Sequence record: PZ452594.1
Direction: 5' to 3' (one strand)
Source of the DNA: a phage
Length of the DNA stretch: 64,000 nucleotides
Shown: piece by piece, positions 3,743-45,326 of the stretch
Position numbering within the stretch: position 1 is the first letter of the stretch
Layout: every line of letters begins with the position of its first letter
Notes under the pieces: generated by a model
Told to the model about the DNA's origin: nothing
Databases searched by the model: none
Seen by the model: the letters and a program-made list of their open reading frames with translations, nothing else
Program-made: the position numbers and the translations under genes

Positions 3743-4840
<1,098 letters not shown>

Positions 4841-42860: not shown

Positions 42861-42926
42861 TTATCCTCGTTTGGTTTCGGGAATATTATACTCCGGTAAT
42901 CATAAAGCTAAAGGCCCGAAGGCCTT

Positions 42927-43196
42927 TTATTTAAAACGGATAGTCGAATCCTTGAAGAATAGACCAGAACACACGGTTCCTTCTACTTTCTGCCCAGTAG
43001 GTCCAATAGCACGAAATCCAGTATGCTGGAAATCATTTTCAGAGCAACCGAACCAGTTATATCCAGTGATTTCAATATTCGTAAAACCACTTGAAGATAA
43101 AACTTTGGTTGCATTATCAGCATCAGTACATCCTGCTAAAGACACTGCTAATACTAATGCTGCGATAGAACGATTAACATATTTCATAATTTTCAC
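42927..43196 (-). CDS. putative lipoprotein
   Basis: 89 aa; signal peptide with lipobox LAGC. Confidence 0.5.
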   Translation of the reverse strand: MKIMKYVNRSIAALVLAVSLAGCTDADNATKVLSSSGFTNIEITGYNWFGCSENDFQHTGFRAIGPTGQKVEGTVCSGLFFKDSTIRFK

Positions 43197-43564
43197 TTAA
43201 ATTTAATGGCTTGAAGAAGACTAATAACTCTCAAGCGACTTCTTTCATCTTTAACTGTAAAAGAAAGAGGGTCACCAGATTTCATAGTAATGGTACATTC
43301 AAAATCAAAATCTTCTGTAACTTCTTCGAAGAAGTCAAATTCTTCATCATAAATTAGAACATTACTCTGACAACTATGAAGAATTTTTCCATCATTTCCA
43401 GATGCTGTACTAATCATTGTAACATTATGACCTTTCATATCTTCAACGATAAATTCACTAGTCAATATTACAGCATTAATAGAACTATTCCTATTACTAG
43501 CAGAAAGTAGATATTTCTGTTCTTCACCTTCACGAATGCAATATTTCTTACCGATTTTAAACAT
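43193..43564 (-). CDS. hypothetical protein
   Basis: 123-aa ORF. Confidence 0.5.
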   Translation of the reverse strand: MFKIGKKYCIREGEEQKYLLSASNRNSSINAVILTSEFIVEDMKGHNVTMISTASGNDGKILHSCQSNVLIYDEEFDFFEEVTEDFDFECTITMKSGDPLSFTVKDERSRLRVISLLQAIKFK

Positions 43565-43566
43565 AA

Positions 43567-43743
43567 TTACCCTTTAAGTAAGTCGTAAAAACCACCATTC
43601 ACATGCTTAGGAGCAGAAGGCCGACGAGTAGACAAACGATGACATTTAGGGCAAACATCATTTTCTCGTTCAGAAATCTTTTTAATTTTTTCATATTCAT
43701 GCCCGCAATCTTCGGATTGGCATTTATAATCATACATTGGCAT
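43567..43743 (-). CDS. zinc-ribbon protein, 58 aa (FmdB-like; below track cutoff)
   Basis: Hand-translated MPMYDYKCQSEDCGHEYEKIKKISERENDVCPKCHRLSTRRPSAPKHVNGGFYDLLKG; two CxxC-type pairs. Confidence 0.5.
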   Translation of the reverse strand: MPMYDYKCQSEDCGHEYEKIKKISERENDVCPKCHRLSTRRPSAPKHVNGGFYDLLKG

Positions 43744-43745
43744 AA

Positions 43746-44165
43746 TTATTCCTTAAAGTGTGCTTTCAACATCTGATACAAGGACCATGCCTGTTCATTA
43801 TTTTCAATAGTAACTTTCATGACTGGGAATTCTGTGAAATCTTCTATTTGTTCTTGCTCTTTCTCTTCCTGCTCTTCAGCTGCCTGGTATGGATTTTCAA
43901 CTTCATCAAAGAACCCAGCTTCGTTAGTAGAAAGCCAGATAAAGTTTTCGTCAAGGATATCACCATGTGTTGCATATCCAACTGTGCCAGTAGATGTCAC
44001 AATTTTAGTAGGACGACCAAGATGGTCAACATCTAAAATTTTAAAAGGATGCATACCTAAACGGCGTGCATAGATTCCGTTATCAGTATGGTCTTTAATA
44101 AAATTTTCTTGAGCTTGTTTATTTTTAAATTGATACCATTTATTAACTTCAAATTTAATAGCCAT
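43746..44165 (-). CDS. hypothetical protein (possibly goF-like by position and length)
   Basis: 139-aa ORF with acidic central region. Confidence 0.4.
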
Positions 44166-44413
44166 TAATAAATTTCCTTCCAGTAAGTTGTGCCATCTTC
44201 AGTAATTTCACGAAATACACCGTAAATTGGTTGTTTATCACCAACCTTTTCATACACATAAACCGAAGTCAAGTGAGTAAACTTGATGGTGTGTTCCTTT
44301 TGAACTACTACCAAATCTGGATCGAATAATACATCTTCAAATTCGTCATTAGTGCAATTCTGAACAATTTTACGTTTCATTACAATTTCCTCATTAATTG
44401 AACAGTGGAGCAA
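44165..44413 (-). CDS. hypothetical protein
   Basis: 82-aa ORF. Confidence 0.45.
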
Positions 44414-45296: not shown

Positions 45297-45326
45297 ATTA
45301 TACTCTGGTCCCAAGAGTTTGTAAAC
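45297..45326 (-). promoter_or_regulatory. T4-type early promoter (GTTTAC-18-TATAAT)
   Basis: GTTTAC 45321-45326, TATAAT 45297-45302; inverted repeat GGACCA...TGGTCC around the -10. Confidence 0.6.

Follow-up and report, generated by a model that had tools for sequence, protein, structure and literature searches.

The small open reading frame between goF and gene 39 in the window, a stretch of 64,000 nucleotides of phage DNA (sequence record PZ452594.1), was identified by its sequence and gene order as the T-even gene 39.2, the NwgI orthologue. This early gene is predicted to encode a zinc ribbon with a flexible tail. Its product most likely shifts the host GroEL chaperonin toward an open form that accepts co-chaperonins, a reading that we hold with good confidence. 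The same GroEL activity is proposed for the window protein because it is 93% identical to, and syntenic with, gp39.2 of phage RB69. The gene is not a discovery. It is a true small gene that was dropped by a 60-residue length filter, and it has already been named, annotated and functionally characterised in T4; the name and annotation go back decades, and the functional characterisation dates from 2012.

Reading frame and gene neighbourhood

A sequence-only reading of the window had claimed a 58-residue reading frame on the minus strand, and its translation was confirmed exactly. The protein is MPMYDYKCQSEDCGHEYEKIKKISERENDVCPKCHRLSTRRPSAPKHVNGGFYDLLKG*, with the start codon ATG at 43743-43741 and the stop codon TAA at 43569-43567. 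Both of the cysteine pairs that had been claimed are present. C8 and C13 form a CX4C knuckle (CQSEDC), not a CX2C knuckle, and C31 and C34 form a CX2C knuckle (CPKC); 17 residues lie between the two. The N-terminus, MPMYDYKC, follows the FmdB pattern MPxY(E/D)YxC directly before the first knuckle. By alignment, M1 and not M3 is the start codon: the family profile begins to align at residue 1, and position 3 is Leu in both T4 and RB69.

The genes are closely spaced. Two nucleotides separate the goF stop codon (43748-43746) from the ATG of 39.2, and another two separate the stop codon of 39.2 from the ATG of the next gene (43564). The AAGGA ahead of 39.2 is also kept in T2 and T4, as seen in the alignment, and is its putative ribosome-binding site. 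A second Shine-Dalgarno-like sequence, AAAGGG (43575-43570), lies 5' of the ATG of the next gene. Translational coupling of 39.2 with its neighbours is compatible with the 2-nt gaps, and each gene appears to have a Shine-Dalgarno-like site of its own. The features of the region are collected in Table 1.

Table 1. Features in and around gene 39.2, in positions of the window.
Feature	Position	Strand	Basis or remark
Gene 39.2 (NwgI orthologue), 58-aa FmdB-family zinc-ribbon protein	43567..43743	-	Sequence, HMMs, synteny
Shine-Dalgarno-like AAGGA	43750..43754	-	6 nt 5' of the 39.2 ATG, within the final goF codons; read from sequence
goF (comC-alpha, mRNA metabolism modulator)	43746..44165	-	ORF, PHROG 622 and goF families, T2 annotation
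123-aa protein of the PHROG family of goF	43193..43564	-	PHROG 622, E=6e-30
Gene 39.1	42927..43187	-	ORF, PHROG 902, T2 annotation
Gene 39, DNA topoisomerase II large subunit, 606 aa	41040..42860	-	ORF, T2 annotation; synteny anchor
cef (modifier of suppressor tRNAs)	44165..44380	-	ORF, T2 annotation; same tightly packed early gene string
Sigma-70-like promoter match TTTACA-17-TATAAT	45297..45325	-	Promoter scan, 11/12, best in region; upstream of motB

A 24-kb query from the window is 96-97% identical to Tequatrovirus genomes. A 1.4-kb query around 39.2 matched 684 phage records, nearly all of them T4-like phages of Escherichia, Shigella, Yersinia and Salmonella, with a best identity of 98.3%. 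By these matches the window is a Tequatrovirus (T2/T4-like) genome. The order of genes is cef, goF, 39.2, a PHROG-622 gene, 39.1 and 39. The order in T2 is identical, and in T4 and RB69 the gene 39.2 likewise lies between goF and gene 39.

The window and T2 share the extra PHROG-622 gene between 39.2 and 39.1. Its annotation in T2 is shorter, and it is absent from T4, where 39.2 adjoins 39.1 directly. Pairwise BLASTP of its product against goF gives only E=0.15.

Several other observations concern the region downstream. The N-terminus of the 39.1 product has a signal-peptide-like stretch and a LAGC lipobox-like motif (MKYVNRSIAALVLAVSLAGC...), which suggests a candidate lipoprotein. A frame error in the old T4 reference cuts this N-terminus off; in re-sequenced T4 it is intact and has LIGC. 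Just past the stop codon of 39.1, at 42870-42926 on the minus strand, a GGCC-UUCG-GGCC hairpin is followed by TAGCTTTA (MotA-box-like), 12 nt and TATAAT. This segment looks like a terminator or RNA-stability hairpin with a middle-type promoter before gene 39. Gene 39 itself is uninterrupted in the window, as it is in T2 and RB69, and is without the T4-specific 39/60 split, the mobA/60.1 insertion and the translational bypass.

The motB-cef-goF-39.2 string may have its early promoter at the sigma-70-like match upstream of motB, which we treat only as a lead. The promoter and terminator scan of the region gave no more sites than shuffled sequence did. A study of T4 counts the 39.2 transcript among the early ones (PMC9697503, Table S2).

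Coding evidence

Length is no proof of coding here, as the AT-rich region holds many wrong-frame open reading frames of 30-60 residues, two of which overlap 39.2. We therefore weighed the reading that the frame arose by chance or is only non-coding sequence separating goF from the next gene. In its favour are the short length, the AT-rich genome, the comparable wrong-frame open reading frames close by and the shortened form given in the T4 reference record. Set against this are HMM E-values of about 1e-11 and a dN/dS of about 0.1, together with conservation of 39.2 across a range that extends from Tequatrovirus to Krischvirus and Certrevirus. A single base accounts for the T4 truncation; this difference is restricted to the old reference and absent in MT984581.

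Substitutions were compared between the window and three orthologues, those of T4, Mosigvirus p000v and Dhakavirus Bp7. The dN/dS values (Nei-Gojobori) are 0.109, 0.107 and 0.052, respectively. Differences at the first, second and third codon positions number 10/5/21, 4/2/10 and 10/4/24. This pattern points strongly to purifying selection on the 39.2 frame. The two overlapping frames, at 43603-43776 on the plus strand and 43599-43733 on the minus strand, were considered and rejected; their lengths are unconserved in T4, and the substitutions fit the 39.2 frame.

The family is also widespread. With the 39.2 protein as query, tblastn found 886 phage records with a match, and in 216 the identity is 99% or more. 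Homologues lie just upstream of the gene for the topoisomerase large subunit in Tegunavirus and Krischvirus, and one occurs in another genomic context in the Vequintavirinae phage CB7. We take 39.2 to be a real gene because of the HMM matches, the tblastn matches and the low dN/dS with its third-position excess. The conservation pattern excludes the chance reading, to which we leave practically no probability.

The T4 gene and its reference record

The public records settle part of what the sequence-only reading had said about annotation. It had called the gene unannotated; a 60-residue length cut-off had indeed missed it, but public records carry gene 39.2, with annotations in hundreds of phage genomes. 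The RefSeq counterpart in T2 is gene 39.2 (YP_010073654.1), listed there as 'FmdB-like transcriptional regulator'. Identity of the window protein is 93% to RB69 gp39.2 (NP_861696.1) and 81% to T4 gp39.2. Both of these share with it the position, a length of 58-59 residues, the CX4C...CX2C arrangement and the C-terminal NGGFYDLLK. Compared with T4 gp39.2 there are 11 substitutions, mostly near both knuckles and at residues 38-42.

The T4 reference (NC_000866/AF158101) annotates 39.2 at 45 residues. It has one extra T and several other differences relative to re-sequenced T4, MT984581 (segments compared: NC_000866.4, 5640-5845; MT984581.1, 1522-1698). In MT984581 the gene encodes 58 residues and ends in NGGFYDLLKG, like the window protein. 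The other modern T4 records listed, T4T and KJ477684-6 included, are 95.2% identical to the reference segment and one base shorter. Among the matches listed, only sequences of the 1990s match that segment at 99.6-100%. The account by Georgopoulos describes T4 39.2 as a 58-amino acid peptide (PMC5153855), in agreement with MT984581.

We considered whether the 45-residue form might be a sign of a dispensable C-terminus or of a decaying reading frame. This was rejected, as MT984581 encodes 58 residues and the other modern records are one base shorter. UniProt Q01434 still gives the 45-residue form, as an 'Uncharacterized 5.1 kDa protein'. A correction is due for both the T4 reference genome and Q01434, which still hold the frameshifted 39.2. 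By mass spectrometry T4 gp39.2 went undetected (Class_P = NA) in a study that used the 45-residue annotation of this very small protein (PMC9697503).

A zinc ribbon of the FmdB family

The sequence-only reading had likened the protein to FmdB-type zinc ribbons and had proposed two checks, an HMM search of zinc-ribbon families and the conservation of the four cysteines. Both bear it out. Against Pfam Zn_ribbon_8 (PF09723) the protein scores 45.7 bits (E=6.7e-12; curated cut-off 34.4), aligned from residue 1. Against NCBIfam TIGR02605 (FmdB family zinc ribbon protein) it scores 44.9 bits (curated cut-off 31.3). It also matches PHROG 1076.

HMMER, run exhaustively over 1.84 billion representatives, gave 155 hits at E<=0.001, and the 143 hits of 40-135 residues were aligned. 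The breadth of the family was taken from this search; a word-indexed protein search gave 7 clusters only. C34 is present in all 143 representatives, C31 in 141, C8 in 140 and C13 in 135. Near-invariant in the same alignment are also M1, P2, Y4, Y6, P32 and a G-G-[FW]-Y motif after the ribbon. The CX4C form of the first knuckle is a minority variant, as 97 of the 143 are without the two extra residues. Every T-even orthologue examined keeps all four cysteines. C8, C13, C31 and C34 are the putative zinc ligands.

Changed ligands were seen in more divergent phage homologues. That of Krischvirus (Makalu) has C-x2-H at the first knuckle, and that of Pectobacterium phage CB7 has CxC at the second.

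An AF2 model built from a 60-sequence alignment has a mean pLDDT of 79 and four short strands. The pLDDT is 86-88 over residues 1-40 and about 60 over residues 41-58, which have no secondary structure. In this model, residues from about 1 to 41 are the zinc ribbon, and residues 42-58 are a predicted flexible tail that carries the family motif NGGFYD. The best fold match in BFVD is T4 Q01434 (TM 0.87, rmsd 1.3), followed by phage proteins of the FmdB family. Foldseek against the PDB returned generic zinc-ribbon modules, none of them significant (best E=0.39). A sequence search of the PDB with the 39.2 protein gave no meaningful match (bL31, E=0.78).

The FmdB family at large has the same N-terminus, the same ligands and the same G-G-[FW]-Y as 39.2, which passes both curated thresholds. 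Most members differ from it in having a CX2C first knuckle and longer tails, where 39.2 has CX4C and a short tail.

Function of gp39.2

The gene was reportedly first selected from RB69, by Ang and Georgopoulos in 2012, and the homologues of T4, RB43 and RB49 are said to have behaved alike. [quoted passage not shown] The relevant passage of one of them states that genetic and biochemical data suggest a shift of GroEL by T4 gp39.2 to an open form, which binds the host or phage GroES co-chaperonins (PMC5153855). According to the same passage, certain groEL mutant hosts block a T4 39.2 deletion completely (PMC5153855). A second paper gives a matching summary (PMC4396842), and T4 39.2 is also reported to suppress groEL mutant phenotypes.

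For the phage of the window, the following course is proposed. The 39.2 protein would bind to the host GroEL chaperonin or otherwise act on it. GroEL would be shifted toward the open conformation that accepts a co-chaperonin, either host GroES or phage gp31. This would help the folding of GroEL-dependent proteins, for example the major capsid protein, where the host GroEL is sub-optimal. On standard hosts 39.2 would be dispensable. Zinc binding, direct contact between the protein and GroEL, and a part played by the tail are putative elements of this proposal.

A different function is implied by the name under which the protein is often filed. As a transcriptional regulator, its zinc ribbon would bind DNA or RNA polymerase and tune early or middle phage transcription. 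The name 'FmdB-like transcriptional regulator' is found in many records and in PHROG 1076, and 39.2 sits among the modifiers of transcription and RNA metabolism motB, goF and cef. Fold matches to the RNAP-binding proteins RbpA and YdjO-SigA were also obtained, although these are weak and non-significant (E 0.85-1.3). However, the literature on FmdB, PF09723 and TIGR02605 yielded no experiment in which a family member was shown to bind DNA or RNAP. Only zinc-ribbon models match the 58 residues, and the profile search detected no DNA-binding domain in them, a result that is compatible with binding all the same. Both characterised members, T4 gp39.2 and Ruc of Mycobacterium tuberculosis, act in protein folding.

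The 'regulatory' in the FmdB name reportedly goes back to an untested inference on a gene beside a formamidase operon. Literature searches found no functional study of the FmdB name-giver. Of the earlier description as a putative FmdB regulator, the family membership stands; 'regulatory' is only an inherited name, whereas experiments on the T4 orthologue support GroEL modulation. We consider a regulatory role highly improbable. For phage 39.2 proteins the widely propagated product name 'FmdB-like transcriptional regulator' is probably a misnomer, and 'GroEL modulator NwgI / FmdB-family zinc ribbon' would describe them better.

Chaperone links in the family

We found no chaperone gene near 39.2 in the window, T2, T4, RB69, TG1, Makalu or CB7. 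The weakest tblastn hits of 39.2 are in jumbo phages, and there the surroundings are different. Klebsiella phage fENko-Kae01 has the homologue (PF09723, 39.3 bits) immediately next to a Cpn10 gene (PF00166, E=2e-18), and in Yersinia phage fHe-Yen9-04 it precedes a gene annotated as 'co-chaperonin GroES'. When the two-gene block of zinc ribbon and GroES was used as query, 71 phage records matched, and in 47 the match spans at least 80% of the block. DNA identity goes down to about 65%, and both genes are present wherever the records are annotated. The hosts include Escherichia, Klebsiella, Salmonella, Erwinia and Yersinia. The pairing belongs to one lineage and counts as roughly one evolutionary event, and it is an independent link to the chaperonin system. 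The adjacency of the jumbo-phage homologue to a co-chaperonin matches the GroEL/GroES phenotype of gp39.2. No mention of this gene pair in phages was found in the literature searched.

A second link is Ruc (Rv0991c) of M. tuberculosis, a zinc-binding, redox-activated chaperone that is co-regulated with hsp60/hsp70 (PMC7448276). Its gene lies beside those of GroES/GroEL, DnaK and ClpB in some phyla (PMC7448276). Its layout is CxxC-N17-CxxC with a disordered tail; the four cysteines bind one zinc, and oxidation activates the holdase (PMC7448276). We rebuilt the N-terminus of Ruc from the cloning and mutagenesis primers of PMC7448276 (MPTYSYECTQCANRFDVV..DDALTTCERCSGRLRKLF.AVGVVFKG), and took a real Ruc orthologue from M. 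celatum (4001-4306 of its locus). These score 55.1 and 56.5 bits, respectively, against PF09723. The pairwise identity between the 39.2 protein and Ruc is 35% over 34 residues. The Ruc paper (PMC7448276) mentions neither phage nor 39.2, and no paper connecting gp39.2 with Ruc was found in the literature searched.

This kinship raises a second alternative, in which gp39.2 is itself a redox-switched holdase like Ruc. Its oxidised cysteines would release zinc, and the protein would bind unfolded proteins without GroEL. The two proteins share the Pfam family and the C-N17-C layout, and the motif KG(S/G)GFY after the ribbon is common to both. In Ruc the cysteines do bind one zinc, and their oxidation turns the holdase on (PMC7448276). 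Ruc, however, requires its long, disordered, hydrophilic C-terminus for holdase activity (PMC7448276). In chaperones of the Ruc type this region has 7-61 residues. Past the end of the N-terminal Ruc construct (..VVFKG), 39.2 has only 8 partly hydrophobic residues (GFYDLLKG). Moreover, the genetics of T4 gp39.2, in the passage devoted to it, is allele-specific for groEL (PMC5153855), and a chaperone gene is associated only with the jumbo-phage homologues, none lying near T-even 39.2. A holdase of this kind seems unlikely to us, somewhat less so than a regulator. GroEL modulation is the preferred reading.

It is conceivable, though we would bet against it, that the FmdB / Zn_ribbon_8 family as a whole consists of small chaperone-network adaptors, so that gp39.2, Ruc and the jumbo-phage ribbon are three faces of one ancient function. 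The G-G-[FW]-Y after the ribbon could be the part that touches the chaperone; it might, for instance, imitate the mobile loop of GroES where this meets the apical domain of GroEL. The kinship with Ruc and the jumbo-phage GroES pair offer inexpensive, testable support for a folding role of a very common family of small proteins. Should all of the FmdB family turn out to be chaperone-network proteins, the link between gp39.2, Ruc and GroES would gain moderate interest.

Comparison with known systems

The zinc ribbon of Rak2/121Q-like jumbo phages (121Q gp614, ENKO_297 and fHe-Yen9-04 g260) lies directly upstream of GroES, whereas T-even 39.2 is far from the co-chaperonin gene 31. The two share the CX4C knuckle (CQNEEC in the jumbo phages, CQSEDC here) and are much alike in the N-terminal half, at 50-53% identity over about 35 residues. 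The jumbo-phage protein has 67-69 residues and a different tail (FRFKGNWF...).

Ruc and 39.2 share PF09723, the MPxYxYxC start, the 17-residue spacing, and KGSGFY or NGGFY, respectively, after the ribbon. They differ in the first knuckle, which is CX2C in Ruc and CX4C in 39.2, and in the tail, which in Ruc is Ser-rich, disordered, about 60 residues long and needed for holdase activity. Both have a role in the protein-folding network; the partner of Ruc is DnaK, and the reported target of gp39.2 is GroEL.
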